From Bacteroidota bacterium (GTDB lineage: Bacteria > Bacteroidota > Bacteroidia > JAIBAJ01), in the NCBI GenBank assembly GCA_947475205.1, contig CANJNG010000003.1, forward strand, positions 5,726-69,725: a DNA stretch of 64,000 nucleotides. Reading direction: 5' to 3'. The notes beneath the pieces were generated by a model. It saw only the letters and a program-made list of their open reading frames with translations. It did no database searches and was not told the DNA's origin. Shown here one piece after another: positions 127 through 34,790 of the stretch (its first letter is position 1; every line of letters starts with the position of its first letter). The translations under genes and the position numbers were made by a program.

Positions 127-1044
127 TTATGCCATCACCCATTCCCCGATAAACATTTCTTTGCCATCGAAGAATACTTCCACGGTGAGGTTTTGATAGC
201 CTTCGCCCGACAGGGTAATAGCGTAAGTGCCTTTTTCGAGTTTCCCAAACCGGAAAAAGCCCCAGGCATTGGTGGTGGTTGTTAGTTTTAGCGAGGCAAT
301 TTCGGCCTGTATGCCTTTGATGTTTTCGCCTGTGGAGGCATCCTTCACCCGACCTTTTATGTCGATACCCCGGTCGGCATCTTTGCTTTCGGGTAGTAAA
401 AACAATTGATAGAGGGGGTAGTTATTGCGATAAATGAGTTTTGATGCAGCCGATACTTCGCTTAGGTAGTTCCACACTTTGTTGAGCAGCAATATCCGTT
501 CGCGGGTTTTCAGGGAGCGGCTTCGCAGAAAAAGTGTTCTGGAAATTATCACAGCTTCTAAGGCCGATTTGCGTGCCAAAACCTCATCAATATCGGTTTG
601 GGTAAAGTTTACAGTGGCCAATTTTGTGGCGTTTTGGCTTACTGCCTCGTGCAGCACAAGCATAAACACCAGCATCTTTTCGGGGCTTTTGCGGGTAGCT
701 TCATAGTCGGCATAACCAAACACCTTCCACATTTGAGGGTTGCCGGGGTAGGCTTTTTCAATGAAGAACTTCGCATTTTGGAAGCATATTCGGCATAACT
801 CCATTTCCTTGTCCAAAACTTCGGTGTTTTGCACTAAAGATATCTCAACATAATCATCCTTATCATACTGCCGGGCAGTATTTATGTCATTTTCCCAGTT
901 CGCTATATAGGTGGCATCAAACATAGGGTCGAATGTTTGAAAGTCGGCCAGGTTTAGCTCCAAAGCATACTTCATATCCAGAGCATGCATAAACATTATG
1001 GGGTCTTCAATGGCATAATCGCGAATAAATTCTGAATCCTGCAT
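127..1044 (-). CDS. Uncharacterised protein: long predicted-helical N-terminus plus C-terminal carboxypeptidase-regulatory-like (CarboxypepD_reg) beta-sandwich
   Basis: 305-aa ORF with no signal peptide. The C-terminus 'IKGRVKDASTGENIKGIQAEI...TTTNAWGFFRFGKLEKGTYAITLSGEGY' matches the CarboxypepD_reg pattern. A -7 box TATTTTTG lies on the minus strand at 1077-1084. Confidence 0.7.
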   Translation of the reverse strand: MQDSEFIRDYAIEDPIMFMHALDMKYALELNLADFQTFDPMFDATYIANWENDINTARQYDKDDYVEISLVQNTEVLDKEMELCRICFQNAKFFIEKAYPGNPQMWKVFGYADYEATRKSPEKMLVFMLVLHEAVSQNATKLATVNFTQTDIDEVLARKSALEAVIISRTLFLRSRSLKTRERILLLNKVWNYLSEVSAASKLIYRNNYPLYQLFLLPESKDADRGIDIKGRVKDASTGENIKGIQAEIASLKLTTTTNAWGFFRFGKLEKGTYAITLSGEGYQNLTVEVFFDGKEMFIGEWVMA

Positions 1045-1183
1045 AGTTTTTGATTTGTAAGATTGATTTGATTGTACAAAAATATGAATATCTATGATTG
1101 TAAGATTAATATATAATAATATTACTTAAATATTTAATGAAGCATGGGGTAGATATACTATAATTAGATATACTTTTTATTAT

Positions 1184-1239
1184 TTCAGTAAAACATTTAT
1201 AGTTTTCCGTTGACGGAAAACTATAAATGTTTTACTGAA
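1184..1239. repeat. Perfect inverted repeat: 27-bp arms, 2-nt centre
   Basis: TTCAGTAAAACATTTATAGTTTTCCGT (1184-1210), TG, ACGGAAAACTATAAATGTTTTACTGAA (1213-1239); the arms are exact reverse complements. Confidence 0.95.
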
Positions 1240-1418
1240 TAGCATGAATATTTAACTATATGCAATACATATTAAGAAGAAACAAATAAATATTAGATTA
1301 CATTTAATAGATAGTAATAAATAACTATTAAATATATAAAATTTAGAATAGAATCTTTTAGGATAGAATTACTTATCCTTTTATAAATATAGAAAAAGAT
1401 TCATAATCCTACGAAACC

Positions 1419-2498
1419 CTATTTATTAAGCCTATCATTTATCAGATTAATGTATTTCAGCAGGGTTTCATCAGCTTTGGGCTTGGGTTCTTTGGTGTAG
1501 CCTTCTAATAAAGCACTATCGCCGGCGAGACGTTCGAGAAGGAAATCTTTATCTAGGGGATATAATTCACCAGTTCGCATACTAAGTGTGTGAAGTGGGA
1601 AATCATATTTAGCCATATCTGCTGTGGTTAGCATTACTATTACTTCTCCAATTAGCCCCGCAGCTACACCGGCTGTAGTCATTAGCATTTGATGTTCTAA
1701 AGAGTATTTACCACTTCTATAGGTAAGAAACCGTCCTTTCGCTAAACAAAGAGAAAACATTATTGCACGATTGGGTGGGTGGGAATTCATAAATATGGAG
1801 TCGCCTTTTACAAAGGAATACATTTCTTCAAAAATGAATTTGTCGGAATAGGCATCGCCTTTAAACTTTAGTGTGTATATGTTACGCTTGCTAGGTGATG
1901 AGTTGTCGGGGCTAATTTGAGTTATCCCCATATCTGCAGTAAAGGCCGGGGTTTTGGTTCTGAACTGTTCAAAGTTGAGGTAAACCCCATCGGGAAATTT
2001 ATCGTAACGCATTGCGGCCAACAGGCTATCGGTGTTTAAGGGTTTCGTCGGGGAGATATCGCCCCCTAAGCTCTTCACTACTTTACTCCGCTTTCGGACT
2101 TCAATTGGTATCAATACTTTAAACGCCACAACAGCATCATAGCCTCCCGACCATAGCTTTTCGGCTTCGGTGAGGGAGAATGCAAAATCGGTTTCCTGTG
2201 CAGACTGCTCATTTCGAGTTTTTAATTCCCTAAAATATTCCGTTTTGCTGATATTCTTGTTTCCGCTGCCTCCTGTTATGAATGCCACTTTTATTCCGTG
2301 GAAATCCTGCCCGTCGCGGCGACCTTTTAAATACGTGTTTAGAAAATCGGCTTCGCTATTGTTTAGGATGGGGTCGTCGTTCAGGCCGCAACTTTCGAGA
2401 TTTTGAGCGATAATGTTGATGGAAAAGAGGCAGAGAAGGAGCGGTAAAATGGAGGAAAGGAAATGATTAGTTTTGATCATTAAAGATGGCAATATCAA
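1419..2498 (-). CDS. Secreted/envelope hypothetical protein, probably two domains
   Basis: 359-aa ORF with a hydrophobic N-terminal signal (start may be the ATG at 2480). The second half begins 'DGVYLNFEQFRTKTP'. No catalytic motif recognised. Confidence 0.65.
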   Translation of the reverse strand: MILPSLMIKTNHFLSSILPLLLCLFSINIIAQNLESCGLNDDPILNNSEADFLNTYLKGRRDGQDFHGIKVAFITGGSGNKNISKTEYFRELKTRNEQSAQETDFAFSLTEAEKLWSGGYDAVVAFKVLIPIEVRKRSKVVKSLGGDISPTKPLNTDSLLAAMRYDKFPDGVYLNFEQFRTKTPAFTADMGITQISPDNSSPSKRNIYTLKFKGDAYSDKFIFEEMYSFVKGDSIFMNSHPPNRAIMFSLCLAKGRFLTYRSGKYSLEHQMLMTTAGVAAGLIGEVIVMLTTADMAKYDFPLHTLSMRTGELYPLDKDFLLERLAGDSALLEGYTKEPKPKADETLLKYINLINDRLNK

Positions 2499-2752
2499 TA
2501 ATGAAACTTACACGAAATAATCACAATAGTATCGGCAGTAACCTTATACACCAACCGGTGTTCGCGGTTTATCCGGCGGCTCCAACAGCCTTTGAGGTTA
2601 TGCTTTAGGGCTTCGGGTTTACCAATCCCCTCAAAAGGTGTTTCCCTGCATTCGGCAACCAACCTTACAATCTTTTCAAATATGTTGGCATCATCTTTCT
2701 GCCACTTATAAAACTGTTCGAGAGCCGAATTCTCAAACTCCACTGTTCTCAT
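2495..2752 (-). CDS. yoeB: Txe/YoeB family type II toxin
   Basis: 'GIGKPEALKHNLKGCWSRRINREHRLVY' is the YoeB signature; overlaps the upstream antitoxin by 4 nt. Confidence 0.93.
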   Translation of the reverse strand: MRTVEFENSALEQFYKWQKDDANIFEKIVRLVAECRETPFEGIGKPEALKHNLKGCWSRRINREHRLVYKVTADTIVIISCKFHY

Positions 2753-2979
2753 TTCTTCAAATACTGGTCAATATCCACCTTGGTAGTTTTGCCTTGCTCG
2801 GCATTTTTAAGGGCATCGGCCAAGTGCTTACGGTTAGCCTCTGAGGAATGCAGGTATTCCGTTTCGTCTAAATCCTCTTCCACCGAAATAGCAATGCGTT
2901 TGTTCTTAAACATAGCTTTAATGCCCGCTATAAAACTTTCATCGAGTTCGTTGGCCTTTATGTGAATAGAAGTGTACAT
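2749..2979 (-). CDS. YefM-like antitoxin
   Basis: The C-terminal 'DETEYLHSSEANRKHL' is the YefM toxin-binding motif. Start placed at ATG 2979 because a -7 box TATCTTTG (minus strand, 2999-3006) lies inside the longer ORF call. Confidence 0.8.
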   Translation of the reverse strand: MYTSIHIKANELDESFIAGIKAMFKNKRIAISVEEDLDETEYLHSSEANRKHLADALKNAEQGKTTKVDIDQYLKK

Positions 2980-3070
2980 GAAATAATAATTAACTACGCA
3001 AAGATAAAGCGAAACACATTCCACTCGCCTTGTCGCCTTTTCGTTATTATTTCCCCATTACTTTCGCCCT

Positions 3071-6000
3071 GTGTCAAATGGTATAGTTTCGGTCTGGAAA
3101 TTCCTATCGGGGATTCGGGCAATTGCAATCCTGGTATTTATCGGCATTTTTGGTTTGGCCGCTTGGCAAGCCAGCAAAATTGAGCTGAATGAAGACATTT
3201 CGGCCTTTGTGCCGCAGGACGAAAACACGGCAAAAGCCACTGCCGTGCTCGAACAATCGGGCATAGCCGATAAAATAATCATTCAGATCTATGGAGAACA
3301 GTCGGACAATGAGGAAGCCTTAATGCAGGTGGCCGATTCGCTAGAAAAGGATTTAGAATCTGCCGAATTTTCAATCGTGGTTAAGCGGGTAAACTACCTC
3401 AGCCCCGACACGGTTTTAGAAACTTTCCTCGACCTGTTTTATGCTCACCTGCCCGTATTTCTCCACGATTCGGATTATGCCCTATATAAGCCCCTACTGA
3501 GCGACACAGGTACATTCAGGTTGCTTTCTGCCCTCAAAGAAAATCTCGAAAATCCTGCTTCCATCTTTAGTGCACAGTTTGCAGCCAAAGACCCGGCAGG
3601 GGTTTATACAAAAGCATTTTCCAAACTTAAAAGCGTTCAACCCGATAGCAATTTTGATATTTATGAAGGTCGTATTTTTTCATCCGACCACAAAAATCTG
3701 CTCCTTTTCATTACACCAAAATATCCGGCAAGCAACACTAGGCAAAATGGCGAACTGCTCAATAAACTGAATGCTTCCATAGCCAAAGCGAAGACGGGTT
3801 CGGCAGTGAATGTATCGGTTTATGGTGGCCCGGTGGTGGCACTAAGCAATAGCCGCCAAATGAAACACGATACGGTTTTCACCTCCATTTTAGCTGCGGT
3901 CTGCATCCTGCTTTTGCTGTTGGCCTTTTACCGCAGTGTATGGCTTACTTTTTTGGTATTTGTTCCGGTGTTGTTTGGTGCGGTGTGTTCGCTGGGATTG
4001 ATAAGTATTTTTAAGGGGGAAGTGTCGGCCATTGCCATCGCTGCCGGAAGCATTGTGATGGGCATTGCCATTAATTATGCCTTGCACTACATCACGCATT
4101 TGAAGCACGAAAAGTCAATTGCCAAAACCCTTGCCGAAATTGCCCGACCCATGCTTTTGGGTTGCGTTACCACAGCGGGTGCCTTCTTCGGGCTGTGTTT
4201 GGTCAAATCGGAAGCCTTGCAGCAATTGGGGCTTTTTGCGGGGCTTACGCTGATTTTTTCGGCGGCGGCCACCATGCTTGTATTGCCGCTATTGACATCT
4301 GACAACATTTCCATAAAAGAGGAAAGCACCCTGAAAGTTTCAAGGTTTGCGGTGTTGGATTATATCCGTGATAAATCTGAAACCTGGCCTGTGTTTTTGG
4401 TGGTGATACTGCTCACCATCGGTTTTTATTTCTTTTCGGGAAATGCTGAATTTGATAATGATTTGATGAAGGTGAATTATCTGGATCCTGAAACATTGGC
4501 GGCAGAAAAGAAGCTCGAATCTATCAGCAGCCATTCGCTTCGGAGTATTTATCTGGCCAATCAAAGTGCAACTGAAGAAGAGGTTCTGATTTCCAACGAA
4601 AGCACAGATTCAACGCTTTCGGCACTTAAAAGCAAGGGTGATTTGCAACATTATATTGTTCCATCTGCTTTGATTCCTTCGCTACAAACTCAGCATAAAC
4701 GTATTGCCCGCTGGGAAAATTTCTGGTCAAGAGAAACCATTGAAAGGGCGAAACAAAACCTCGAAACTCAAGGAAAGAAGTTGGGATTTAAGGCAAGTGC
4801 ATTCTCGGCCTTCTTTGCAAATATCGAAACGGCCAATCAGCCTTTATCAACTGAAAATAAAGATTGGTTGCGAAGCATTTTCTTTCAAGATTTTATGTTT
4901 CACAAAGCCGGGAATTGGTATATCATTTCCCAAATAAAAACTACCGAAACAAAACGAAATGCGGTAACCGAAACCCTGGCTCAAAGCCCGGACGCTATGT
5001 TGCTCGACAAGCAATTTCTTACCCGAAAATTTATCAGTTTGGTGAAGGAAGATTTCAGCACCATTCTTTGGGTGTCGGGCGGACTGGTATTTATAGTGCT
5101 GCTGTTAAGTTACGGAAGGATAGAACTTACCCTGATTAACTTCCTACCGATGTTGCTGAGTTGGATTTGGCTGTTGGGCCTGATGTCGATATTCGGGTTA
5201 AAGTTCAACATCGTAAACATCATCATCGGAACCCTGATATTTGGGTTAGGCGACGATTACAGCATTTTTGTTTTGGGTGGAATGCTCGAAGAGTTTAAAA
5301 CCGGGAAAAAGCTGTTGCCATCTTTCAAGACTTCTATTTTTCTGTCGGCAGCCACAACGTTTATCGGGGTGGGCGTGCTCATATTTGCCACACACCCTGC
5401 CCTGAAAAGTATTGCATCGGTTACCATTATAGGAATGGTTGGGGTGTTGGTTATATCGCTTACGGTTGCTCCATTTCTGTTTCGCATCCTGGCATTAGAC
5501 CGCAAGAAGAAAGGCTATCTTCCCTATACGGCTTCGGCCTTTGTGTTGTCGTTTATTGCATTTTTCTACTTCATAATAGGGTGCAGTGTGCTGAATATTG
5601 TTGGGTTCGTGCAGTTTAAAATCCTTCGGCAACGCAGCAAAGCGGCCAAAATGTTTTTCCACCGGGTGTTGAGTTGGTTTACGGGAAGCCTCGTTTACCT
5701 GATGGCCAATGTGAAAAAGAAAATCATCAATACCTCGGGGGAGACGTTTGAAAAGCCTGCTATCATTATTAGCAATCATCAAAGCTTTTTGGATATTCTA
5801 ACCATTACCATGCTTTCTCCAAGGATGATTTTGCTGACGAACGAATGGGTTTGGAATTCGCCGTTTTTTGGAACGTTCATTAAGTACGCCGACTATTTAC
5901 CGGTAGCCGATGGGATAGAGCATAATGTGGAGAAAATCCGCAACATCGTTAATCAGGGCTATAGCGTTTTGGTTTGGCCCGAAGGCACTCGCAGTCCCAA

Positions 6001-6910
6001 CGGGCAAATGAAACGTTTTCATAAAGGAGCGTTTCTTTTAGCTAAAGAATTGGGTTTAGAAATTCTTCCCATAATTGTCCATGGCACAGGCCATACGATG
6101 AGTAAGGGTGATTTCCTGTTGAAAAACGGGCAGATCACTTTGAAGATTATGCCCCGGATAAGCCTTAGCGAAGAAAGCACACCTGCCGAATTAGCCAAGA
6201 GCATTGGACGCTGGTTTAGGGGGGAATATACCCGGTTGTGCTTGGAAACGGAAACGCCATCCTATTACAAGGAAATTTTGCTAAAGAATTATATTTACAA
6301 AGGACCTGTTTTGGAATGGTATGCCCGGGTAAAGGTTACTTTGGAGAAAAACTATGAGCCTTTTCATAAGCTGGTGCCACTCGATGCCACGATTACTGAT
6401 ATTGGGTGTGGCAATGGCTTTATGGTTTGGATGCTTTCGTTCTTATCGCCCGCCCGCAAAATAACCGGGCTGGATTACGATAGCGAAAAGATTGAAGTGG
6501 CGGCTAATATTTCTACGCCAAATGATAGGGTAAATTTTCGGCAGGCCGATATCGTAAAAGAAGAACTGAGCCCGAGCGATGTATTTATTATGGCTGATGT
6601 AATCCATTATTTGCTTCCGACACAGCAGGAAGTTGTTTTGCGGAAAATGATGAATGCCCTGAACCCCGATGGCTTAATTATTCTTCGGGATGGGGACGCC
6701 GACTTGGTGAAACGTCAAAAAGGGACCTGGCTCACAGAACTGTTTTCTACTAAACTGGTTGGCTTCAATAAAACCCAAAACGAATTGCATTTTATTTCGG
6801 GGAAATGGCTGCATGATTTTGCGGCCAAGCATCAGTTCTCCGTATCGGTGAATGACGATACAAGGTTTACTTCTAATACGGTGTGGGTGCTGAAGCGGCG
6901 GATGAATTAA
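3071..6910 (+). CDS. Trifunctional MMPL/RND-like transporter + PlsC-type acyltransferase + class I SAM methyltransferase (flexirubin/aryl-polyene-cluster type)
   Basis: Two multi-TM blocks with 'GIAINYALH' and 'GLGDDYSIF'; PlsC motifs 'NHQSFLD' and 'WPEGTRS'; SAM motif 'DIGCGNG'. Confidence 0.85.
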   Translation: MSNGIVSVWKFLSGIRAIAILVFIGIFGLAAWQASKIELNEDISAFVPQDENTAKATAVLEQSGIADKIIIQIYGEQSDNEEALMQVADSLEKDLESAEFSIVVKRVNYLSPDTVLETFLDLFYAHLPVFLHDSDYALYKPLLSDTGTFRLLSALKENLENPASIFSAQFAAKDPAGVYTKAFSKLKSVQPDSNFDIYEGRIFSSDHKNLLLFITPKYPASNTRQNGELLNKLNASIAKAKTGSAVNVSVYGGPVVALSNSRQMKHDTVFTSILAAVCILLLLLAFYRSVWLTFLVFVPVLFGAVCSLGLISIFKGEVSAIAIAAGSIVMGIAINYALHYITHLKHEKSIAKTLAEIARPMLLGCVTTAGAFFGLCLVKSEALQQLGLFAGLTLIFSAAATMLVLPLLTSDNISIKEESTLKVSRFAVLDYIRDKSETWPVFLVVILLTIGFYFFSGNAEFDNDLMKVNYLDPETLAAEKKLESISSHSLRSIYLANQSATEEEVLISNESTDSTLSALKSKGDLQHYIVPSALIPSLQTQHKRIARWENFWSRETIERAKQNLETQGKKLGFKASAFSAFFANIETANQPLSTENKDWLRSIFFQDFMFHKAGNWYIISQIKTTETKRNAVTETLAQSPDAMLLDKQFLTRKFISLVKEDFSTILWVSGGLVFIVLLLSYGRIELTLINFLPMLLSWIWLLGLMSIFGLKFNIVNIIIGTLIFGLGDDYSIFVLGGMLEEFKTGKKLLPSFKTSIFLSAATTFIGVGVLIFATHPALKSIASVTIIGMVGVLVISLTVAPFLFRILALDRKKKGYLPYTASAFVLSFIAFFYFIIGCSVLNIVGFVQFKILRQRSKAAKMFFHRVLSWFTGSLVYLMANVKKKIINTSGETFEKPAIIISNHQSFLDILTITMLSPRMILLTNEWVWNSPFFGTFIKYADYLPVADGIEHNVEKIRNIVNQGYSVLVWPEGTRSPNGQMKRFHKGAFLLAKELGLEILPIIVHGTGHTMSKGDFLLKNGQITLKIMPRISLSEESTPAELAKSIGRWFRGEYTRLCLETETPSYYKEILLKNYIYKGPVLEWYARVKVTLEKNYEPFHKLVPLDATITDIGCGNGFMVWMLSFLSPARKITGLDYDSEKIEVAANISTPNDRVNFRQADIVKEELSPSDVFIMADVIHYLLPTQQEVVLRKMMNALNPDGLIILRDGDADLVKRQKGTWLTELFSTKLVGFNKTQNELHFISGKWLHDFAAKHQFSVSVNDDTRFTSNTVWVLKRRMN

Positions 6911-6966
6911 AAATCTGCAAAATGTATGTTAAGCTGAAACCCACTGTACATTGACTACATCTATCT

Positions 6967-8250: not shown

Positions 8251-8310
8251 TGCATGCTGGAGAAGAGTGTATTTTATTATTGAATAGAAAATATACACTA
8301 TTCGTATTGC

Positions 8311-8318
8311 TACCTTTG
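8311..8318 (+). promoter_or_regulatory. Bacteroidota sigma-70 -7 element upstream of lpdA
   Basis: TACCTTTG matches TAnnTTTG, 13 nt before the ATG at 8332. Confidence 0.6.
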
Positions 8319-8331
8319 CCCCCTAATTATT

Positions 8332-9735: not shown

Positions 9736-9774
9736 TCTGAACTGTTTCATTTTTCCCACCTTTCAATTACATCA

Positions 9775-15130: not shown

Positions 15131-15216
15131 AAAAAACTCTCCCTACATCCTCCCCGCCACCACCAAAAACAAAAACCCCACCAATCCCAAACCCATTAAC
15201 CCAATCTGCCCCCCGC

Positions 15217-15240
15217 TAATCGTAGCGTCCTCGCTACGAT
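15217..15240. repeat. REP-like GTAG hairpin
   Basis: AATCGTAGCG-tcct-CGCTACGATT, a perfect 10-bp stem. Confidence 0.55.
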
Positions 15241-15331
15241 TGGTACCCAAGGCCTCCGGCCAGCATTTCCATTCCCCGCATCAAAACTAAACCGACCTCC
15301 ATCCAGAGAAACCCCAAATGGCTTTGCCCCC

Positions 15332-15490
15332 GGAAACTTCCCAGCAATAGCGGCAGCAAGCACGAAGGGCTGGCAAAGGGCGTTTGGGTGCTTGATGTCC
15401 GCGGTTTCCCCTTCGGCCATAGCCGTTGGGGAAAATTGCCTTGGAAGTTTCCACGGTTTTTGGTTACTTTTTGCCAAGCCAAAAAGTGAC
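15332..15490 (+). ncRNA. Candidate multi-stem structured RNA or non-autonomous repeat element
   Basis: Stems GGAAACTTCC/GGAAGTTTCC (15332-41/15443-52), GCGG..GCAAGCAC/GTGCTTG..CCGC, TTCCCC/GGGGAA, and a terminal GTTACTTTTTG/CAAAAAGTGAC hairpin. Strand is uncertain. Confidence 0.45.
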
Positions 15491-15565
15491 ATAAAAATAC
15501 CATTTTACCCAAAAACACCCCTCCAGCCCAATAGAATCAAGCCTTTGCAATTCAGAAAAAGTGCG

Positions 15566-15838
15566 GTAGAAATTAATTCGGGGGTGGTAGAAACTCTACA
15601 AGGGTCGGTAGAAATTCAACCTTGCCCGGTAGAAATCAAACCGGATGCGTTAGAAACCCTACTAGGGTCGGTAGAAATTCAACCTTGCCCGGTAGAAATC
15701 AAACCTGACGTGGTAGAAACTCTACATAGGTCGGTAGAAATTCTACCGGATGTGGTAGAAGCTAAACAAGAGTTGGTAGAAATTCAACCCTAACCAGTAG
15801 AAACCCTACCCAGCCCGGTAAAAATTCATATATCCCCC
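15566..15838 (+). repeat. Tandem array of 13 x 21-nt units with a conserved GTAGAAA head
   Basis: Units start at 15566, 15587, 15608 ... 15818 with exact 21-nt spacing. Units 3 and 6 are identical; units 2/5/8 and 4/7 are related. Confidence 0.92.
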
Positions 15839-25839: not shown

Positions 25840-25880
25840 AGGTAAATATATTTGTTTGAAATTAATATTGGAGAAATGGG

Positions 25881-26369: not shown

Positions 26370-26405
26370 AAGTAGTATTTCTAAACATGATAAGAAAGAG
26401 ATACT

Positions 26406-27074: not shown

Positions 27075-27142
27075 AAATTAAATTGAGGGCGAAGTTATAG
27101 AAAAGCCCCCTCTGGAATCAGCGATAATTTGGAGGTTATATC

Positions 27143-27682
27143 TTAACGGCATCCCGAATTTCCAAGAATAATCTTAGCCTCCTCGTTGCCCATTTTCTTT
27201 GATTTCTTCCAATCATCGCAAGCACCTTTATCGTCGCCCAATCCCTTTTTAGCCCAGCCACGGTTGTTGTAAGCTTCTTGGTTTTCTGGTTCCAACTCAA
27301 TGGCTTTATTAAAATCAACCAAGGCATCATTAAACTTATTGAGTTTATTTAATGAACCGCCACGACTTATATGAGCCCAAACAAAATCGGGACGAATCTC
27401 TAAAACCCGAGTGTAATCAGCAATGGCCTTTTCATATTCCTTTTCGGCAGCATAACAAAATCCCCGTTGAAAATGGGCATTTGGATGGTCTTCTTTTATA
27501 GCAATGGCTTTGGTGTAATATTCGATAGCCTGTTTTTTATCACCGTTCTTTCGGCGGATTTCGCCTTCTTTAAATAAATCGTCAGCTGATTGGGCATTGG
27601 CGAATAAGCCAAAAGTTAAGAATAAACCTAAAAGGAAATTTTTCATGGAGATATTATTGAATTCGAGGCATTGCAACGGCAA
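27143..27682 (-). CDS. Secreted tetratricopeptide repeat protein
   Basis: Signal peptide plus four TPRs ('AHFQRG', 'AIADYT', 'AYNNRG', 'ACDDWKK'). Start may be the internal ATG of 'MKNFLL'. Confidence 0.85.
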   Translation of the reverse strand: MPLQCLEFNNISMKNFLLGLFLTFGLFANAQSADDLFKEGEIRRKNGDKKQAIEYYTKAIAIKEDHPNAHFQRGFCYAAEKEYEKAIADYTRVLEIRPDFVWAHISRGGSLNKLNKFNDALVDFNKAIELEPENQEAYNNRGWAKKGLGDDKGACDDWKKSKKMGNEEAKIILGNSGCR

Positions 27683-27699
27683 AACGCTACGAAGGTTAT

Positions 27700-28362
27700 T
27701 TATTCCACTGCCGTAAAAGCATACTGCACCAGATTCGCTCCCATCTTCAGGGCTTTCTCGCGGGCTTCGGGGCTGTCGTGATGGATGTCGGGGTCTTCCC
27801 AGCCATCACCAAGGTCACACTCGAAACTATAAAAACATACCAATCGGCCTTCGTAGATTATTCCATAACCTTGTGGTGGTTTATTGTCGTGTTCGTGAAT
27901 TTTGGGTAAACCTGTTTTGAAATCAAATTTCTGATGATAAATAGGATGCGAATAGGGTAGCTCCACAAATTCCAACTCTGGGAAGACCCGCTTCATTTGC
28001 GGACGAACAAATTTATCCATTCCGTAATTATCATCAATATGCAGAAAGCCGCCACCAATAAGATATTTCCGAATATTCTCTCCTTCCTTATCAGAAAATA
28101 CGATATTTCCATGTCCTGTAATGTGTACAAACGGATAATTGAACAATTCAGGACTTCCGGCTTCCACGATGGCTTGTGCAGGGTCAATGTTTGTGCCGAG
28201 GTTTTTATTGCAGAATCCTATCAGATTGGGCAAAGACGTTTGTAAATTAGCATACCAGTCACCTCCACCGTTATACTTCATCAAAGCAATTTTAACCGAA
28301 GACGGTGCAGGAGAAAAGGAAGAAAGCAGAATTAAGGCGGGAAGGAAAAGAAGTGATTTCAT
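27700..28362 (-). CDS. DUF4159 family protein
   Basis: 'GGGDWYAN', 'YPFVHITGHG', 'GGGFLHIDDNYG', 'DLGDGWED'. Confidence 0.85.
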   Translation of the reverse strand: MKSLLFLPALILLSSFSPAPSSVKIALMKYNGGGDWYANLQTSLPNLIGFCNKNLGTNIDPAQAIVEAGSPELFNYPFVHITGHGNIVFSDKEGENIRKYLIGGGFLHIDDNYGMDKFVRPQMKRVFPELEFVELPYSHPIYHQKFDFKTGLPKIHEHDNKPPQGYGIIYEGRLVCFYSFECDLGDGWEDPDIHHDSPEAREKALKMGANLVQYAFTAVE

Positions 28363-28399
28363 CTGAAAAAAGAATCTTTAACCCTTATGGACACGAACA

Positions 28400-29194
28400 C
28401 TATTCGGTAATAGTAACGTAGCCACTATTTATCCAAACAAATTCTTTGTTGAATATCGAAATTTTGTAGTCGCCGGGTTTGCGGAAAGAATAATGAAACA
28501 CAGCGGTGGACTTCGTTTTATCGGTTTTAAATTCTTTGGTGTCAAAATGTTCGTTAAACGATTGGTCATCGTTCTTCTTTTTCCAAACATCCACCATAAG
28601 CTTATCTGTACTTAAAGGTTTGTCAGAAGTGAGGATAATTTCCACATACTTCCCTTTTCCTTCTATTTTGAAACTTGTGCCTTCGTTTTGTGCCCTTCCT
28701 TCTTTAAATGCTTCGCAAAAAATGATCTTACTTAAACTAAACCGTTTGGTTTCGGCGGCATTCGCCATTTTATACGTGTCATCGGTTTTGCTATTCTCTT
28801 CCTTGCCTCGCAAAAACACATCCGTCGTGGCTAAGATATTGCCTTTGTCATCTCTTGCTGAAACAACATATTTGCCAATTTCAGGCAAATTGTAATAATC
28901 GGCCACCCAATTTTTGTTAGAACCCACATTGAAGATGAGTTTGGTAAGGCTATCGGCGGCATTCTTAATTTCTACATAAATTTTATGCGAATTAATTGTT
29001 TGTCGACCATTGTTAAAGATAATTGCTATTCGACTTTCAGCACTATCGGCATACCAAATATTGCGTTTGTTAAGTCCTTCACCTGTTTCAGTAAAAGATT
29101 TAGCAAACACAATAGTTTGGGCTGTTGAATGGAAACTTGCACCCACATAAAGCAGGAGAAAAAACAGAAAAGAGGTTTTAATGAATTTAGTCAA
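28400..29194 (-). CDS. Secreted hypothetical protein with two similar beta-rich halves
   Basis: 264-aa ORF with signal peptide; the halves begin 'IVFAKSFTETGEG' and 'IIFCEAFKEGRA'. Confidence 0.65.
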   Translation of the reverse strand: MTKFIKTSFLFFLLLYVGASFHSTAQTIVFAKSFTETGEGLNKRNIWYADSAESRIAIIFNNGRQTINSHKIYVEIKNAADSLTKLIFNVGSNKNWVADYYNLPEIGKYVVSARDDKGNILATTDVFLRGKEENSKTDDTYKMANAAETKRFSLSKIIFCEAFKEGRAQNEGTSFKIEGKGKYVEIILTSDKPLSTDKLMVDVWKKKNDDQSFNEHFDTKEFKTDKTKSTAVFHYSFRKPGDYKISIFNKEFVWINSGYVTITE

Positions 29195-29223
29195 TTTTCT
29201 CCGTGTAATTTATGCATTTAGAG

Positions 29224-29306
29224 TGCCCAGGACGAGATTCGAACTCGTACAACCGTAGGTCGCCACCCCCTCAAGATGGTGCGTCTACCAATTTCGCCAC
29301 CTGGGC
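29224..29306 (-). tRNA. tRNA-Leu (anticodon GAG)
   Basis: Minus strand GCCCAGG...CCATC-TTGAGGG-GGTGG, long variable arm, GTTCGAATC, CCTGGGC-A; CCA not encoded. Confidence 0.95.
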
Positions 29307-29425
29307 TTTAAAAGCGTGCAAAAATAGGATAATTTCGTTTAGATTTACTTGGGATGAAAGGAAAGGTCGATTAATTTAGAATAGACGGAATTCAAGGCAA
29401 ATAGCGATGCTTCACCAACAAGCAC

Positions 29426-29457
29426 AAAAAAAGCGAAACATTTCTGCTTCGCTTTTT
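29426..29457 (-). terminator. Intrinsic terminator after the 29482-29901 gene
   Basis: AAAAAAAGCGAA-10 nt-TTCGCTTTTT. Confidence 0.6.
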
Positions 29458-29481
29458 CTATTGTCTGAATATTCTATTGTT

Positions 29482-29901
29482 CTACTTAAACCCAATCAAC
29501 ATCACTGCACAGCCCGAAGCCTGATTAGTGGTAAAGAGTTGGGCCTCGATAGTAGTAGATAGCGTTGAAGCAAATTTCAAATCCCAGTAGGGAGCGTTCT
29601 TTTGGTCAGCATTGGTGAACAACAGGTTCTTTTCTTGGTCAAACACCGAGAAAACCAAATTGCCATCGGTAAACCCGCTGCAACCGGAGATACGGTAAGT
29701 GCTTCCACCATAAAATACAGTTTTGAATTCTGCAATTTCCTGATTATTTAAAAGAGCACGATAGCTTTGACCATCAGAAATATAGTTTTTAGCAATGTTC
29801 TTATTGCAAATATTAGCAATGCTATCACATTGAGCAAAAGCGTTCTGATTCACTAAACCAAAACCAATAGCTAATACGAAAATTGAAAGTAATTTCTTCA
29901 T
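29482..29901 (-). CDS. Secreted hypothetical protein
   Basis: 139 aa with signal peptide and four Cys; co-oriented with the upstream lipoprotein gene. Confidence 0.75.
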   Translation of the reverse strand: MKKLLSIFVLAIGFGLVNQNAFAQCDSIANICNKNIAKNYISDGQSYRALLNNQEIAEFKTVFYGGSTYRISGCSGFTDGNLVFSVFDQEKNLLFTNADQKNAPYWDLKFASTLSTTIEAQLFTTNQASGCAVMLIGFK

Positions 29902-29920
29902 TTTATTTTATCTTAATTAA

Positions 29921-30874
29921 TTAACCTACAATAGAGTTTCTGATTTTTTCTATCTTTTTAGTTATGGTTTCTAATTGTTCTTTGGTCATTACCACTTTAG
30001 TAGAACTGCTTATCGATGTAGTTTTAGTTGCTACATCGGTAACTGGTTTCACATATTTATATTCAATATCAATTGCATCGAAATCGTAAGCCAAATCAAT
30101 AAGGTCATTAATAAGGTCGGTATATTCAGGTTGTTTGTAATAAGGTTGAAGCAATTTAATCAAGTTATCCAAGGTGTATTTTTGCTCACCGATACGGTTT
30201 TTCAATTCCTGATTTTCTTTTGTGCCTAACACTTTTGTGCTGAAATATAAAGTTTCAATCCAGCCACCGGTTAATACCAATGCTCCAACATCCAAACGGT
30301 CATTATTCTTCAAAAAAGCATCGGATGAGCGATACCCAACAGCAACCATACTTAACATAGAGTCGCGTTTGCCTAAATTTTGCTCGAAACGCTTCATTGT
30401 GTTTGCGTCAAAGGCATTATTTATTCCCAACTCTTCGGTTAGTTTGCGAATGGAACCGATATAGCCCAAAGCATCCTGAGTTTGGTCATACATGGTTACA
30501 TAGCCCACATCGGCACCATAAACCCCAAGGTTAATTGCTTTTTTGTAGTTGGTGGAATATTTAGAAAAGTTCTTAGCCGAATTGAGCATTTCTTTATTGT
30601 AAGCTGCTCCGGTTGACTTGATTAACATCGCCGTTTGAAACGGTGAAGGAATGCTAAAATTAGCATTTCCAAGTTTTATTATGTTGGGTGTTGTAGCTGA
30701 ATCGGCATTGTTTTCTCCGTCTTTAGATTTAGAGCCGCCGCATCCAGATAGTAAAATACTTACGCTAAAAGCACATCCGACAAAGGTTTTTAGGGCTAAG
30801 GTTTTAATGTTCATTTGCTTTGAAAAAGGTTTGCAAGGATAGTAAAAATTTGTGTCGGCAAATAAAATGCTCAA
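29921..30874 (-). CDS. Hypothetical lipoprotein, predicted helical
   Basis: Lipobox 'LLSGC'; motifs 'AINLGVYGAD', 'GGWIETLY', 'RIGEQK'. True start is probably the ATG of 'MNIKTL'. Confidence 0.8.
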   Translation of the reverse strand: MSILFADTNFYYPCKPFSKQMNIKTLALKTFVGCAFSVSILLSGCGGSKSKDGENNADSATTPNIIKLGNANFSIPSPFQTAMLIKSTGAAYNKEMLNSAKNFSKYSTNYKKAINLGVYGADVGYVTMYDQTQDALGYIGSIRKLTEELGINNAFDANTMKRFEQNLGKRDSMLSMVAVGYRSSDAFLKNNDRLDVGALVLTGGWIETLYFSTKVLGTKENQELKNRIGEQKYTLDNLIKLLQPYYKQPEYTDLINDLIDLAYDFDAIDIEYKYVKPVTDVATKTTSISSSTKVVMTKEQLETITKKIEKIRNSIVG

Positions 30875-30910
30875 TTATTGTGAAAAAAGTTCAGTTGTGA
30901 AGCCATTGTG

Positions 30911-32098
30911 CTACGGCAGTATCGGATACGTTTTTACCGCTGTTAGCTGTCCCAGGGAGTCGGGAAACCAATATTGTGCTTTGTGAATAAGCGAAATGCG
31001 AAACAACTTTGCTTTAGTCGCATTCTTTAACAACACGGAATATTTTATTTCCGAACCATCGAGAGGGACATCATTGCCATATTCTCCCAAATGGGTATTG
31101 TTTTCCATATTGGAATACATTTCGGCATCAAATTCTTTTTTCTTGTTTATGCGGATGGTTTTATGGCCAAGCAAATTAGAATCCTTATCCAATACATCAC
31201 AATTCAAAATCATTTCTGGGCCGGGACTTATGCGGTGAGGTATTGAGGTGTTATTCCAGGTAATTTCCCCGCCTTTGCCCGATAGTTTGAAACGAAAGTC
31301 ATCCATGAGCCAATACATTTTGCTATTTACCTTTTCTTTAGGGTCATGGCTCCAATAATAATAGTGTGTGCCTTTTCCAGAGCTATATTCCTGATGGCAG
31401 TTTACGCATAACACAGAGCCGGTTCGGGCAATGGCTATTTTAGGTTTAATTTGTTTTACCACATCGGCATGACAGGTGAAGCACGAAATATTATTCTTGG
31501 TAATGGTAGTAAGCGTTTGCAATGCCGGAATAGAATCATCTTTAGAGGATACATGCTTGAGCGAAACCATACCTTTTCCATCATAATGACAGCTAAAGCA
31601 ATCAATACTTGTTACTCGGGAACCTTCCCCAGTTCGGGACTCCGGCCGAGGATGCGAAATTTGCAAAAGCCCGGCAATAAACTTATCGGGGTTGTTTAAT
31701 GTGTCTTTCAGACTGGTTTCAAACAAATTCTTCGGTGCATGGCAGCCCATACAATCATTAAAAGACCGATTAACACTTCGGGTATAAAACCCACAGGAAT
31801 ATTTGTCGCTATTTACAAAATCACGATGAGCCACTAACTGCTGATAGGCATTTCCGTGAGGCCCCTTGCTTTCGTTCTCCACCTGTTCTTTGTGGCACGA
31901 TGCACACTTGGTTATTTGTTCTTTGCGGTTAAGGGTTTTAAATTCTTCGCTTTGCAGAAAATCGTGGTAAGGCGTATTTGATTTATTGTAATTGCAACAG
32001 TTCAGCATAATGGCTACCACAGTAACCATAAATACAGCCAGAAGAATTCTGTGAGTAGTGAGCATAAATACCCTTCCTTTATAAAGGAGAGAAGGCAC
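30911..32098 (-). CDS. Multiheme (5 x CxxCH) c-type cytochrome, probable lipoprotein
   Basis: CASCH, CMGCH, CFSCH, CFTCH, CVNCH; hydrophobic signal ending 'LNCC'. Start may be ATG 32065. Confidence 0.85.
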   Translation of the reverse strand: MPSLLYKGRVFMLTTHRILLAVFMVTVVAIMLNCCNYNKSNTPYHDFLQSEEFKTLNRKEQITKCASCHKEQVENESKGPHGNAYQQLVAHRDFVNSDKYSCGFYTRSVNRSFNDCMGCHAPKNLFETSLKDTLNNPDKFIAGLLQISHPRPESRTGEGSRVTSIDCFSCHYDGKGMVSLKHVSSKDDSIPALQTLTTITKNNISCFTCHADVVKQIKPKIAIARTGSVLCVNCHQEYSSGKGTHYYYWSHDPKEKVNSKMYWLMDDFRFKLSGKGGEITWNNTSIPHRISPGPEMILNCDVLDKDSNLLGHKTIRINKKKEFDAEMYSNMENNTHLGEYGNDVPLDGSEIKYSVLLKNATKAKLFRISLIHKAQYWFPDSLGQLTAVKTYPILP

Positions 32099-32238
32099 AA
32101 AACTACCAAATAATACCGTTTGCTATTAAACCAGGCGTAAGCACACACTTGGCAAATAGAAAAGAGTGGGAATAATTACTCTCCTGAACAAAAAACGGTT
32201 AATGCCTTTGCCTCGCCGTTCACCTTGTTAAAATATCG

Positions 32239-33350
32239 CTAATCTTTTAAGCACCTCACTGCATTTCCATGTATCTTACTTGAAGTGCTATACTTAGATG
32301 CCATATGAATTACAGGATTAGGAAAATTAGGGAACAAGTCAATATTAATTGTTTTAGCTAAAAATTAATCGGCCCGGTTGTTGAACTCCACCATTCAGCA
32401 CCTGTCCCAAAAACAACGCCGCCTAAACCGGAGCCAACAGCAGTAAAGCCACTTAAATTTGTTGCTGTTGCATTATATCCAGCTACCCAATGTGCTGAAC
32501 CTATTTCTGTCATCATATCGCCACTAATAGTATCATATTGAGGTTGATTTGGATTTAGATAGGTACGCAATGTTCCCCATTCTGTTATAGAAGGCAGATG
32601 CCAACCTGCTGGGCATGCATTACGGGAATCAGTAACAGTGTACCAAGAATAATATTTTCCATAGGGAACATCCAATGCAGATGAATCTCTGTACCAACAC
32701 CATTGACTTGTTGTTGTATCTGCAATGTTACTTGACCATTCACCAGAAAAATATGTAAGATTGTTTATTGGATCCCCATTCGCAAACCGTGTCGTTCTCA
32801 AATTCTGCTGCATCCATTCCTGTGTGCCCAATATAATAGAGGTATAAGTGTTGCCGTCAATATCGGTTACTCCGTTACCCATGGTATAGATGTCTCCCGT
32901 AGTAAAGCTTACTTCGTTGCCGTAGGCTGTGCCTGCACTGTTTATGGCTTAGGCCCTAACGTAATAGGTAGTGTTTGCACTCAAGCCTGTTAGGGTGCTG
33001 GTGTAGCTTCCTGTGCCGGTGCCTGTACCGTTTAGGGTGGTGTCGTTAGCAGTTGTTGGGCTGGTGGTGGTTGCCCAGCATACGCCACGGTGGCTTATGG
33101 TGCTGCCGCCATCGGCGGTTATATTGCCTCCGCTTAATGCACTGGGGCCGCTTATGCCCGTTACGCCGGTTGTGGTAATGGTGGCTAAGGTGCCCGGGGT
33201 CATAATCTCGTATGTTATGCTATCAATAGTAGAGATATCTATTTGCAGAACCTGTCCATTGCTCTGGTAGATGTTCATATAGGTTTGAGCTTTGGAATTG
33301 ACAATTGATAATTGACAAATGATAATTAAGAGGAGGATGAACTTGTTCAT
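32239..33350 (-). pseudogene. FN3-like + FISUMP (Fib_succ_major) secreted protein, interrupted by an in-frame TAA and a 1-nt frameshift
   Basis: 'YYVRA*AINSAGTAYG' (TAA at 32949-51) continues in frame into 'TDIDGNTY..IILGTQEWMQQNLRTT' and 'CPAGWHLPS'. Adding one base to the A5 run at 32360-64 restores '...GNAVRCLKD*', ending at 32239 (371 codons). Confidence 0.85.
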
Positions 33351-33684
33351 TGGTATTAGTTTTGAAATCCAAAGATATAGATTGTAGTTGTCTGCTTAAC
33401 TTTTTTAAGTAAATGCACTTATGAAGAAGAAAAAATATTGTGGGCTAAACCGAATAGCTTTAACACAAAATTCCTTCACAATTTATTAACAGAGAATATT
33501 GTCACCATCGCAAATAAACGCTGAAAGGGAGCCATTCCTGCAAAGGATATTGCTTCGCAACTACCCATTCAACGAAGTTATGTACATTATAAAGGAACAG
33601 CTACCACACATAGGCTTTCACTTCTGTTTATTGTTGCCTACAATTATCCTTTTAAAATTTCTGCTCTATACTCCCTTCCAATTT

Positions 33685-33930
33685 CAACCAATATAGCTTC
33701 GATATTGGTTATGTTTTCTCCATATCAACCAATATAGCTTCAATATTGGTTAGTTTTTCCCAATATCAACCAATATAGCTTCGATATTGGTTAGTTTTTT
33801 CCTATATCAACCAATATAGCTTCAATATTGGTTAGTTTTTTTCCATATCAACCAATATAGCATCAATATTGGTTAGTTTTTTTCAATCTTAACCAAGATA
33901 GCATCAATCTTGGTTAGTTTGAGTTTCAAC
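33685..33930. repeat. Tandem array of 6 x 41-bp units, each with a 9-bp inverted repeat around a 7-nt loop and a T-rich linker
   Basis: Units start at 33685, 33726, 33767, 33808, 33849 and 33890. Core AACCAATAT-agc(t/a)tc(a/g)-ATATTGGTT; unit 6 is AACCAAGAT/ATCTTGGTT. Confidence 0.95.
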
Positions 33931-34116
33931 TGTTGCTTTAATCGGTTATCGGGCATGTTAAAATCCTTTTTGGTTTGATATTCAGTGATATATTCATTTT
34001 ATTGAAAAATAATTTACATTTCACACAATAAAAAACACAACGGTGCGTTATCTCTACAAGATATTCGGAGCACACGCATCCGGAATCGTTTTATTAACAA
34101 TTTAATTTTTTACAAA

Positions 34117-34734
34117 ATGAAAAAAGTAAAATTAGGGCTAAGTAATCTTAGCTCATTGCAACTGGCCGCAAAAGCCCAGCACCTTGTAACAATGCTTACA
34201 GGCAATGCAAATTTTGTAACTCCAAACCCCACCTTAGTTTTTATCTTGGGGCTTATGAACGCACTATTACTTGCCGTGGAGGATGCTTCCAATGGCGATA
34301 AAGTGAAAAAAGCTGCCGAACGCACTGCATACACCAACCTTAAAAACGCAATTGTGCTTTTGGGTGGCTATGTGCAAGAGGCGAGCGGTGGCGATGAAAC
34401 CAAAATCCTGAGTTCGGGATTTGAGGTAGTAGGTCAAAGGCATCCGCAGAGTGTATTGACTGCAGTTGAAAACGTGCATTCGATTGCTACCAACATCGAG
34501 CATCAAGTTATTTTGAAATGGAATAATTTGAAAGGGGCTAGTGCATACCTTATCTCGTTTGCCGAAAACCCCGATGGTGATTGGATAATTGTTACTGCAT
34601 GCACTAAGGCCGCAATTACGCATTCGCTTAATGGCCTTCCCATTGGCACAACAAAAGTGTGGGTAAAGGTGGCCGGGGTAAACGCTGCCGGAGTGGGGGC
34701 ATATTCTGCTGCTATTAGCGTTAGGGTGCTGTAA
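34117..34734 (+). CDS. Uncharacterised cytoplasmic protein: helical N-domain plus C-terminal fibronectin type III domain
   Basis: 205 aa, no signal peptide; FN3 pattern 'VILKW..LKGASAYLI...W...SLNGL...VWVKVAGVNAAGVGAYS'. Confidence 0.85.
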   Translation: MKKVKLGLSNLSSLQLAAKAQHLVTMLTGNANFVTPNPTLVFILGLMNALLLAVEDASNGDKVKKAAERTAYTNLKNAIVLLGGYVQEASGGDETKILSSGFEVVGQRHPQSVLTAVENVHSIATNIEHQVILKWNNLKGASAYLISFAENPDGDWIIVTACTKAAITHSLNGLPIGTTKVWVKVAGVNAAGVGAYSAAISVRVL

Positions 34735-34754
34735 TTGGCCTTGTCCTTTTTGAG

Positions 34755-34790
34755 AAACCGACCTTAGCGTGTGAAAGGGTCGGTTTTTTT
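34755..34790 (+). terminator. Intrinsic terminator of the FN3 gene
   Basis: AAACCGACC...GGTCGGTTT followed by a T run. Confidence 0.8.

Follow-up and report, generated by a model that had tools for sequence, protein, structure and literature searches.

Helix-phased tandem arrays precede two large families of unannotated helical-bundle and beta-sandwich genes in Bacteroidota and related bacteria

Results

The window, by which we mean the whole 64 kb stretch of DNA analysed, comes from a freshwater member of the Bacteroidota, and both genes considered here are unannotated. Gene 1 (127–1044, minus strand) encodes a protein of 305 residues, defined by its open reading frame, a CarboxypepD_reg match and a helical model. 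The protein has a helical N-domain (residues 1–220; 385–1044, minus strand), delimited by the AlphaFold2 helices and by hhalign comparison of its two halves, and a CarboxypepD_reg-like beta-sandwich (residues 229–289; 178–360, minus strand) that matches Pfam PF13620 at E 2.6e-10, with 41 bits against a cut-off of 32.3. In the AlphaFold2 model the helices span residues 14–205, with pLDDT of 85–95 over residues 20–170. The model is poor at residues 209–305 (pLDDT below 50) because the alignment held only 3 sequences.

Gene 2 (34117–34734, plus strand) encodes 205 residues, which according to the structural model and Foldseek form a three-helix N-domain (residues 1–105) and a fibronectin type III (FN3) sandwich (residues ~113–205). 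The model has a mean pLDDT of 88 and contains helices at residues 13–27, 38–59 and 62–90, followed by the beta-sandwich. Foldseek aligns this sandwich with FN3 domains of DCC and neogenin (E 1e-6, probability 1.0, rmsd about 2 Å over ~100 residues). A Pfam scan of the gene 2 protein at E ≤ 0.1 gave no match, fn3 (PF00041) included; fn3 is matched in 5 of 13 relatives (best E 1.1e-10), and the family profile matches titin and fibronectin FN3 domains in the PDB.

An earlier sequence-only reading of this DNA had described two stand-alone genes, each joining a helical N-terminus to a beta-sandwich and lacking an export signal. Open reading frames, Pfam, AlphaFold2 and Foldseek bear out both genes, and we found no export signal in either protein; the model folds the gene 2 N-terminus with confidence (pLDDT 89–94), and relatives have charged residues in that stretch. 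The same reading had proposed that the two might belong to one family, and here the result is divided. BLASTP detects no similarity between the two proteins, but profile comparison gives weak matches that run end to end and in register. The gene 2 N-domain aligns with the first half of the gene 1 N-domain over 92 columns at hhalign E 4.5e-4, with a score of 24.8 against 9.7±1.9 for shuffles (maximum 16.1) and 8.4 for the reversed control. The two halves of gene 1 also align with each other over 98 columns (E 1.4e-3; score 22.1 against 10.8±2.3 for column shuffles), and an HMM of the first half matches the second half of several family members from end to end. HMM cross-matches between the gene 1 and gene 2 N-domains are likewise in register, and the N-domain profile matches are weak throughout, with HH probabilities of 18–33%. 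These profile alignments suggest that gene 2 probably has one copy, and gene 1 two copies, of a three-helix module of ~100 residues, and that the two N-domains are probably weakly homologous.

Both families are large, unannotated and made of stand-alone genes, and they are found in Bacteroidota, Ignavibacteriota and related bacteria, where an array of tandem repeats typically precedes the gene. An exhaustive profile search for the gene 1 family, a large FCB-group family, returned 1215 cluster representatives at E ≤ 1e-3, of which 781 remain at E ≤ 1e-10. Its members consist of a helical N-domain of ~215 residues and an optional C-terminal sandwich (PF13620 is matched in 36 of the 60 members scanned), and the source databases name them only "hypothetical" or "carboxypeptidase-like regulatory domain-containing". 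For gene 2, 62 loci with relatives were found in metagenomes. The encoded proteins, acidic and without export signals, look like scaffold or binding proteins and not like enzymes.

Upstream of gene 1 lies a perfect 56-bp palindrome (1184–1239) with 27-nt arms (1184–1210 and 1213–1239) and a 2-nt centre. The arms are 100% complementary, and this is the sole perfect long inverted repeat in the window. Its centre reads TTTTCCG-TCAA-CGGAAAA and its arms hold TTATAGT and ACTATAA. The palindrome is identical in a second assembly (L012), a further contig (L013) breaks at its centre, and the TTATAGT-(23 bp)-ACTATAA pair is retained at the locus of a 63% ortholog (L007). The palindrome sits in an AT-rich spacer (1045–1418) in which autocorrelation reveals a decayed 21-bp register: the top periods are 21, 63 and 42 bp (0.45 against a 95% shuffle maximum of 0.424), and those of the ortholog spacer are 21, 63, 84 and 42 bp (0.517 against 0.447). 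In the gene 1 spacer of the window, one dyad of a decayed 21-bp-phased region is turned into a perfect 56-bp palindrome. A candidate Bacteroidota –7 box, TATTTTTG (1077–1084, minus strand), placed by sequence reading as a match to the consensus TAnnTTTG only, lies 99 bp downstream of the palindrome and ~33 nt ahead of the gene 1 ATG.

The DNA upstream of gene 2 is of another kind, a tandem array of 5.9 units of 41 bp (33679–33920) with a 90% match between units. Each unit carries a 9–10-bp inverted repeat, AACCAATAT-N7-ATATTGGTT, and a T-run, and the last unit has changed on both sides in a way that preserves the dyad (AACCAAGAT...ATCTTGGTT). A length of 41 bp corresponds to four helical turns and is not divisible by 3. 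The copy number is 6 in the window and 5, about 4 and 3 in the near-identical contigs L009, L011 and L010, respectively, differences to which assembly collapse may contribute. A weak candidate –7 box, TAATTTAC (34010–34017, plus strand), an imperfect match to TAnnTTTG by sequence reading, lies 90 bp downstream of the array. Neither the palindrome nor the 41-bp array has a further copy in the window. The AT-rich palindromic DNA that had been noted at both loci is real as repeated DNA, but it differs in kind, being a single long palindrome at one locus and a tandem array at the other. We rejected a CRISPR, as the units stand head to tail without spacers and the flanks contain no cas genes.

The hairpin-forming units raise the possibility that the element acts as RNA, the array being transcribed as a leader or small RNA of repeated 21- or 41-nt hairpin units that would titrate an RNA-binding protein, like a sponge RNA of the CsrB/RsmZ type, or govern stability or termination of the downstream message. 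The T-runs that follow the 9–10-bp hairpins and the double change that keeps the pairing would suit such a role, as would the last gene 2 unit, the only one to pass a lenient terminator scan. However, the stems contain only 2–3 G–C pairs and the gene to the left of the array is transcribed away from it, so that no upstream gene reads toward the array; for these reasons the units were rejected as intrinsic terminators. A dyad kept by double change is equally expected from a dimer site or from hairpin-templated repair, and the element has no Rfam match.

We then scored as an array any tandem repeat detected by TRF with a period of 21×n, a length of at least 40 bp and a position within 450 bp upstream of a gene. 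Such an array (period 21, 42 or 63 bp) precedes 22 of 26 gene 1 family genes and 28 of 51 gene 2 family genes. Of the 231 control genes taken from these loci, only 4 are preceded by such an array, each of them a divergent neighbour that uses the spacer of the family gene (Fisher P about 1e-24). Autocorrelation, which does not depend on TRF, agrees: its top period is 20–22 or 41–43 bp in 24/27 gene 1, 32/48 gene 2 and 23/221 control spacers. Over all loci the TRF periods are 21 (75 rows), 42 (42), 63 (16), 41 (5) and 20 bp (4). The arrays reach up to 19 units and end 60–370 bp ahead of the ATG in both families; about 45% of gene 2 relatives have no clean array. Arrays accompany 11 of 13 short and 11 of 13 long forms of gene 1, which shows that they go with the helical module and that the sandwich is optional. 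Hence the coupling of gene and upstream repeated DNA, first suspected from two loci, is family-wide in both families and far above background.

The palindromes did not generalise in the same way. Upstream of homologs, the median length of the longest inverted-repeat arm is 6–7 nt, equal to controls, and the survey thus shows no enrichment. What the loci have in common is a strict 21-bp register (two or four helical turns), not palindromes. Dyad arms of at least 8 nt occur in 14 of 30 gene 2 family arrays, and TTCCG motifs at one locus (L078) run to within ~35 nt of the ATG, both of which would fit an RNA. By contrast, such arms are present in only 3 of 22 gene 1 arrays, most of which are plain direct repeats without hairpins. 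The composition of the arrays has no strand bias, and a period that is a multiple of 10.5 bp is a property of duplex DNA and not of RNA. We consider an RNA-level element unlikely.

The distribution of the arrays also bears on whether they are neutral or selfish minisatellites, similar to REP/BIME elements, that were generated by slippage within long AT-rich spacers and do nothing for the gene. The copy-number differences among near-identical strains would be expected of such sequences, and weak IS200/Y1-transposase-like (Y1_Tnp-like) ORFs lie near four loci only. Against this origin stand the very strong association with two gene families across phyla, the place of the array, which is kept while its sequence turns over, the strict helical period, which slippage alone would not produce, and the 231 control genes, none of which has an array in a spacer of its own. 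We regard it as very unlikely.

The unit sequences vary from lineage to lineage, and the gene 1 arrays nevertheless have features in common. CGGA(A) appears once per unit in 12–14 of 22 gene 1 arrays, and 13–16 of 21 unit positions are identical between several genera. The palindrome of the window contains the same core at its centre (TTCCG/CGGAA). About 10 arrays carry CGGAA on the strand of the gene and about 4 carry it on the other strand. Evidence for orientation reversal is marginal, with 13/21 identities where the null reached 14 at most. The arrays are non-coding, because periods of 41, 20 and 40 bp occur, differences show no excess at third codon positions, and the arrays are overlain by ORFs on either strand or by none. 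Few relatives have an exact TAnnTTTG box between the array and the start codon. The window has a further array at 15564–15804, beside an unrelated gene, and the three arrays of this one genome share no clear motif.

Discussion

The explanation we favour, with confidence that stands about midway, is that the array is a platform on which proteins bind in phase upstream of the promoter, and that it represents an undescribed means of gene control. The array would work as DNA just upstream of the promoter, the promoter being placed by consensus boxes only. Each unit would seat copies of a protein, all on a single face of the helix, with dimers on the dyad units, and the bound copies would jointly switch the downstream gene's transcription or tune it. 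Gain or loss of units between strains would alter the setting. Action at the level of DNA and not RNA is suggested by the lack of strand bias, by CGGAA on both strands and by arrays common to divergent genes. The family-specific CGGA(A) core points to a sequence-specific factor that travels with the gene 1 family. Several observations count against a platform: up to 19 units are many for a transcription factor, exact TAnnTTTG boxes are rare downstream of the arrays of relatives, about 45% of gene 2 relatives have no clean array, and one array of the window lies beside an unrelated gene.

The lack of a clear common motif among the three arrays of one genome is fitted equally well by a reader of shape or spacing, or by intrinsic curvature, as by specific factors. 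Intrinsic DNA shape could suffice if two-turn repeats summed small bends into curved DNA that stimulates or insulates the adjacent promoter without a dedicated protein, and a conserved period with free sequence just upstream of consensus-placed promoters is what such DNA would look like. This leaves unexplained the family-specific core, the positions conserved across genera and the dyad-symmetric units, and we think shape alone decidedly unlikely.

The binding protein could also be the product of the gene itself. In this case the protein with the three-helix module would polymerise on its own array, for autoregulation or within a higher-order complex, on the model of ParR/parC, SopB/sopC and Rep/iterons. 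A superfamily of three-helix modules, with or without Ig-like sandwiches, would then form self-contained, co-evolving pairs with its own helix-phased arrays; the protein, or a complex that it nucleates, would coat the array unit by unit by an undescribed mode of DNA binding, as a chromosomal nucleoprotein structure beyond simple autoregulation. Array and gene do move as a stand-alone pair through unrelated genomic contexts, the core motif is specific to the gene 1 family, and both families conserve a basic, strand-like N-terminal stretch ahead of helix 1, which contains the nearly invariant R8 in the gene 1 family and KVK in the gene 2 family. However, most proteins of both families are acidic (median pI 5.0 for gene 1 and 5.9 for gene 2), which makes binding to their own element less likely; Pfam, PDB sequence search and Foldseek found no DNA-binding domain in either family, and a partner NTPase or Rep gene is absent. 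We judge this arrangement quite unlikely, both as a self-polymerising module and in its extended form.

The suggestion that these are mobile or anti-phage modules is already largely refuted by context, and we consider it most unlikely. The genes stand alone in variable contexts, and a helicase beside gene 2 matches the PADLOC candidate-defence helicase PDC-M16A (E 4e-109). However, PADLOC returned no match for either protein, no neighbour recurs across more than 80 loci and no recurrent cluster is a helicase, IMG/VR viral contigs contain no relatives, and no integrase or flanking repeats were seen.

Several known systems offer parallels for these arrays. Upstream of their promoters, OmpR (F1–F3/C1–C3), PhoB (pho boxes) and BvgA (fha and ptx) bind adjacent 20–22-bp sites that seat dimers cooperatively on one helix face. 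Those systems have 2–6 sites, and in each the regulator is known and the regulon has a single conserved sequence, whereas the present arrays have up to 19 units and lineage-specific sequences. Partition centromeres and iterons (sopC, with 12 × 43 bp and inverted repeats; pSK41 parC, with 20-bp repeats; R1 parC; plasmid Rep iterons) are tandem 20–43-bp units, some with dyads, that lie beside the gene for a coating protein with which their sequence co-varies. The present arrays differ in having no ParA, ParM or Rep partner, a chromosomal location and acidic proteins without a known DNA-binding fold. An identity as plasmid iterons or partition centromeres was rejected: the neighbours are ordinary chromosomal genes, no Rep, ParA, ParB or ParR partner is present and IMG/VR contains no relatives. 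E. coli REP/BIME elements are intergenic tandem palindromic units with strain-variable copy number. They are one sequence family at hundreds of sites, mostly 3′ of genes, in contrast to arrays that are unique in sequence each time, lie 5′ of a specific gene family and keep the helical period.

The closest precedent in print is the class of bacterial tandem repeats of constant size (20–23 nt) and variable sequence that Subirana & Messeguer described as enigmatic (PMC8161180 and the 2020 paper cited there). Their work describes non-coding arrays with a unit fixed at about 21 nt, a sequence that differs by array and species, and a short conserved core, and as a guess its authors name either an RNA transcribed from the array or a protein whose polymerisation on DNA requires this size. 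Our arrays are alike in their fixed unit of ~21 nt (or multiples), variable sequence and non-coding nature. The earlier study catalogues repeats across whole genomes and gives no gene context; as far as we have read it, it draws no link to particular downstream gene families and makes no mention of 42- and 63-bp multiples, dyad units or a position upstream of promoters. The literature accessible to us contained no published link between 20–23-nt repeats and these gene families.

The present findings tie 21-nt arrays, so far an unexplained curiosity, to defined gene families that are unannotated and very large and that have the arrays on their 5′ side; the gene 1 family alone forms about 1,200 clusters when grouped at 50% identity. 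Across phyla the arrays hold their helical register despite sequence change, and why the proteins have Ig-like sandwiches but no export signal is likewise unexplained. The array–gene pairs make the binding factor, unit number, phasing and protein role experimentally approachable in cultured Bacteroidota and Ignavibacteriota. If expression is tuned by gain and loss of units, the arrays would amount to contingency loci of a new kind among environmental bacteria.

Phased arrays upstream of two gene families

Tandem repeats are strongly enriched upstream of the relatives of both gene 1 and gene 2 compared with other genes in the same loci (controls), and their periods cluster at 21, 42, and 63 bp. 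After removal of near-duplicate loci, an array of this type was found within the 450 bp upstream of 22/26 gene-1 relatives and 28/51 gene-2 relatives, and upstream of 4/231 controls, all four of which are divergent neighbors that have their spacer in common with the family gene. A measure independent of TRF, the strongest autocorrelation period in the window from −330 to −30, fell at 20–22 or 41–43 bp for 24/27 gene-1, 32/48 gene-2, and 23/221 control genes. The arrays end 60–370 bp before the start codon and hold from 3 to about 19 units. Short gene-1 forms are preceded by them as often as long ones, and the array is therefore tied to the helical module rather than to the sandwich. The sequence-only reading had proposed a recurring module of gene plus DNA element, which is right in substance, but the defining feature is helical phasing and not palindromy: long palindromes show no enrichment, and the median longest perfect arm upstream of homologs (6–7 nt) equals that of controls.

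The gene-2 array (33679–33920) comprises 5.9 copies of a 41-bp unit. Each unit contains a 9–10-bp dyad, and that of the last unit is preserved through a change on both arms. Unit number at this locus is 6, 5, about 4, and 3 across near-identical contigs, a difference to which assembly collapse may contribute; in the Logan DNA contigs the array region was too broken up for units to be counted. Unit-number differences of this kind bear on a reading of the arrays as neutral minisatellites, to which we give lower weight than to a role in the DNA itself.

The third array of the window (15564–15804) comprises about 11–13 units, each exactly 21 bp long and with a constant GGTAGAAA core, has a higher order of 63 bp, and adjoins no member of either family. 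Read on the minus strand, it is followed by a G+C-rich stretch of ~420 bp (15140–15560) that lacks a credible ORF, matches nothing in Rfam, and folds only slightly better than shuffles (z −1.7); a 219-aa gene lacking a Pfam match comes next. Four related loci (L001–L004, about 1586–2234) carry a 21-bp array of unit ATCATAACCATGATACAACTA that measures 258 bp, 363 bp, or a split 141 + 162 bp on contigs that are otherwise identical. A 203-aa predicted membrane protein is encoded 254 bp downstream of it, two genes before a gene-2 relative that lacks its own array but has a perfect 12+12 palindrome.

The gene-1 palindrome and the content of the arrays

Upstream of gene 1, between a TATTTTTG box (1077–1084) and the point where a DUF6563 gene stops, is a perfect palindrome with 27-nt arms (1184–1239); the window has no other like it. 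Its center reads TTTTCCG-TCAA-CGGAAAA, and a second assembly has the identical palindrome. TRF did not flag the gene-1 spacer, whose top autocorrelation periods are nonetheless 21, 63, and 42 and exceed the threshold set by shuffling; at L007, the locus of a 63%-identical gene-1 ortholog, the spacer has stronger periods of 21, 63, 84, and 42. Common to both spacers is TTATAGT followed 23 bp on by ACTATAA. At L007 this word turns up again after another 21 bp, and in the window the two words make up the arms of the perfect palindrome. The palindrome is thus a local dyad, recently 'perfected' within a decayed phased array, and no separate kind of element. Both upstream elements had been read as palindromic, which fits the gene-1 palindrome and the dyad units of gene 2, although the elements differ in kind. 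One metagenome contig produced by another assembler stops precisely at the center of this 56-bp palindrome (L013:1), as is usual for assemblers at true palindromes, which illustrates that palindromes of such kind break assemblies.

Array units vary widely between lineages. CGGA(A) or its complement occurs once per unit in 12–14 of the 22 gene-1 arrays, against a chance expectation of a few percent for any one 5-mer, and gene-1-family units of several genera are identical in register at 13–16 of 21 positions. No common core was found in the gene-2 arrays, about half of which contain internal dyads. Array composition shows no strand bias; about ten arrays have the CGGAA core on the gene strand and about four have it on the opposite one. 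True inversion of a whole unit has only marginal support.

We considered whether the arrays are coding (heptad repeats) and rejected this, as periods of 41, 40, and 20 are present, unit differences follow no codon-position pattern, and ORFs across the arrays, where there are any, occur on one strand or the other. A terminator reading was likewise rejected. An element acting at the RNA level is given lower weight than one acting in the DNA; Rfam returned no known-RNA match, and a search of RNA-seq runs turned up none that contains the locus. In relatives an exact −7 box is rare in the stretch from array to ATG and hence uninformative, and no sigma-54-type boxes were seen by eye in a few leaders.

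The proteins and their surroundings

Gene 1 (127–1044, minus strand) is an ORF of 305 aa. In its AlphaFold2 model residues 14–205 are all-helical, residues 20–170 at high confidence, and precede a CarboxypepD_reg domain (residues 229–289) that exceeds the curated Pfam cut-off; this sandwich was modeled poorly because the alignment had just three sequences. Gene 2 (34117–34734, plus strand; 205 aa) gave a good model (mean pLDDT 88), in which helices at 13–27, 38–59, and 62–90 are followed by a beta sandwich matched by Foldseek to FN3 domains with probability 1.0. No export signal was found in either protein; the gene-2 N-terminus belongs to the confidently modeled fold, and the same stretch holds charged residues in its relatives. 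The ORFs and models, with the palindrome and the 41-bp units, bear out the earlier description of two loci that each combine a signal-less helical-plus-sandwich gene with an upstream DNA element. The helical domains of both genes had no match in Pfam, NCBIfam, PHROGs, or PADLOC, that of gene 1 has no relative with a solved structure, and Foldseek against the PDB and BFVD gave generic helical or coiled-coil matches alone (TM below 0.3), the gene-2 search being obscured by FN3 matches.

A word-index search recovered few relatives, and the size of the gene-1 family comes from an exhaustive profile search: at 50% identity, 1215 representatives pass E<=1e-3 and 781 pass E<=1e-10. The best 149 relatives comprise 53 short forms of at most 260 aa that consist of the helical domain, 88 with one sandwich, and 8 longer, and the database names of family members are 'hypothetical' or taken from the sandwich. 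With a narrowed alignment, 25 MAG loci of this family were collected from Bacteroidota, Ignavibacteriota, and Cloacimonadota; the gene-2 family is represented by 62 metagenomic loci. Both families consist of stand-alone genes in ordinary chromosomal surroundings, and their loci show no conserved operon partner or regulator. Neither family has relatives on viral contigs and neither protein matches a PADLOC defense model, so the suggestion of a mobile or anti-phage module found no support.

The sole recurrent neighbor cluster (L026:2420–3199, L088:5056–5511, L091:5205–5543, and L092:1619–2161) consists of ORFs weakly resembling IS200/Y1 transposases (E 2e-5 and 1.7e-3); such ORFs lie directly downstream of a gene-1 relative in three Ignavibacteriota loci. 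Paralogs occur in tandem for gene 2 (L022:650–1273 and 1709–2332, a short 21-bp array before each) and 3.5 kb apart for gene 1 (L093:3–380 and 3977–4699). In the window, gene 2 is followed directly by the gene of a PIF1/RecD-like helicase (34875–36308, plus strand), which matches a candidate-defense model of PADLOC, PDC-M16A (E 4e-109); helicases are absent from the recurrent neighbors at other gene-2 loci. Two genes upstream of gene 1 is a YoeB-type toxin gene (2495–2979, minus strand; Pfam E 8.5e-33), and the 76-aa ORF that overlaps it upstream is probably its antitoxin. A 1195-aa fusion of MMPL transporter, acyltransferase, and methyltransferase domains is encoded at 3323–6910 (plus strand).

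A helical module likely common to both proteins

BLASTP found no similarity between the two proteins, and whole-protein hhalign was insignificant. A signal arose solely from larger alignments cut at domain level: the first half of the gene-1 helical domain gives an end-to-end alignment with the gene-2 N-domain (92 columns, E 4.5e-4, score 24.8), and the two gene-1 halves align with one another (98 columns, E 1.4e-3, score 22.1). Column-shuffled controls scored 9.7±1.9 and 10.8±2.3, respectively, with 0/60 reaching the real score, and reversed controls 8.4 and 11.0. Profile-sequence searches gave weak in-register cross-matches, some onto both halves of one gene-1 member. The predicted helices agree in both length and order: one short helix comes first, next a ~10-residue loop that holds a conserved aromatic/proline motif, and last two long helices. 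We consider homology of a ~100-aa three-helix module likely but not proven. The proposal of a single family is partly supported, by domain profiles but not by whole-protein comparison. The two families never co-occur in the loci collected.

Relation to known repeats and a possible role

The arrays match the repeats described in the accessible text of Subirana and Messeguer (PMC8161180), bacterial tandem repeats whose size is constant (20–23 nt) and whose sequence varies apart from a short conserved core, for which that text gives no known function and guesses at a polymerizing protein or small RNA. In the accessible portions of the literature on such repeats, we found no description of a tie to specific downstream gene families, of 42/63-bp multiples, or of dyad variants.

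That the core is specific to one family points to a sequence-specific factor associated with the gene-1 family. The gene-1-type product itself is a candidate for this array-binding factor, but acidic proteins predominate in both families (median pI 5.0 for gene 1 and 5.9 for gene 2) and no DNA-binding fold was found in either. A role for curvature only is given lower weight. A DNA-level platform is best supported, because the helical register is conserved, the arrays are positioned just 5′ of the predicted promoter region, and orientation is seemingly irrelevant. On such a platform, copies of a protein would sit in phase along the array on a single face of the helix, and the array-bound protein would control the gene downstream.
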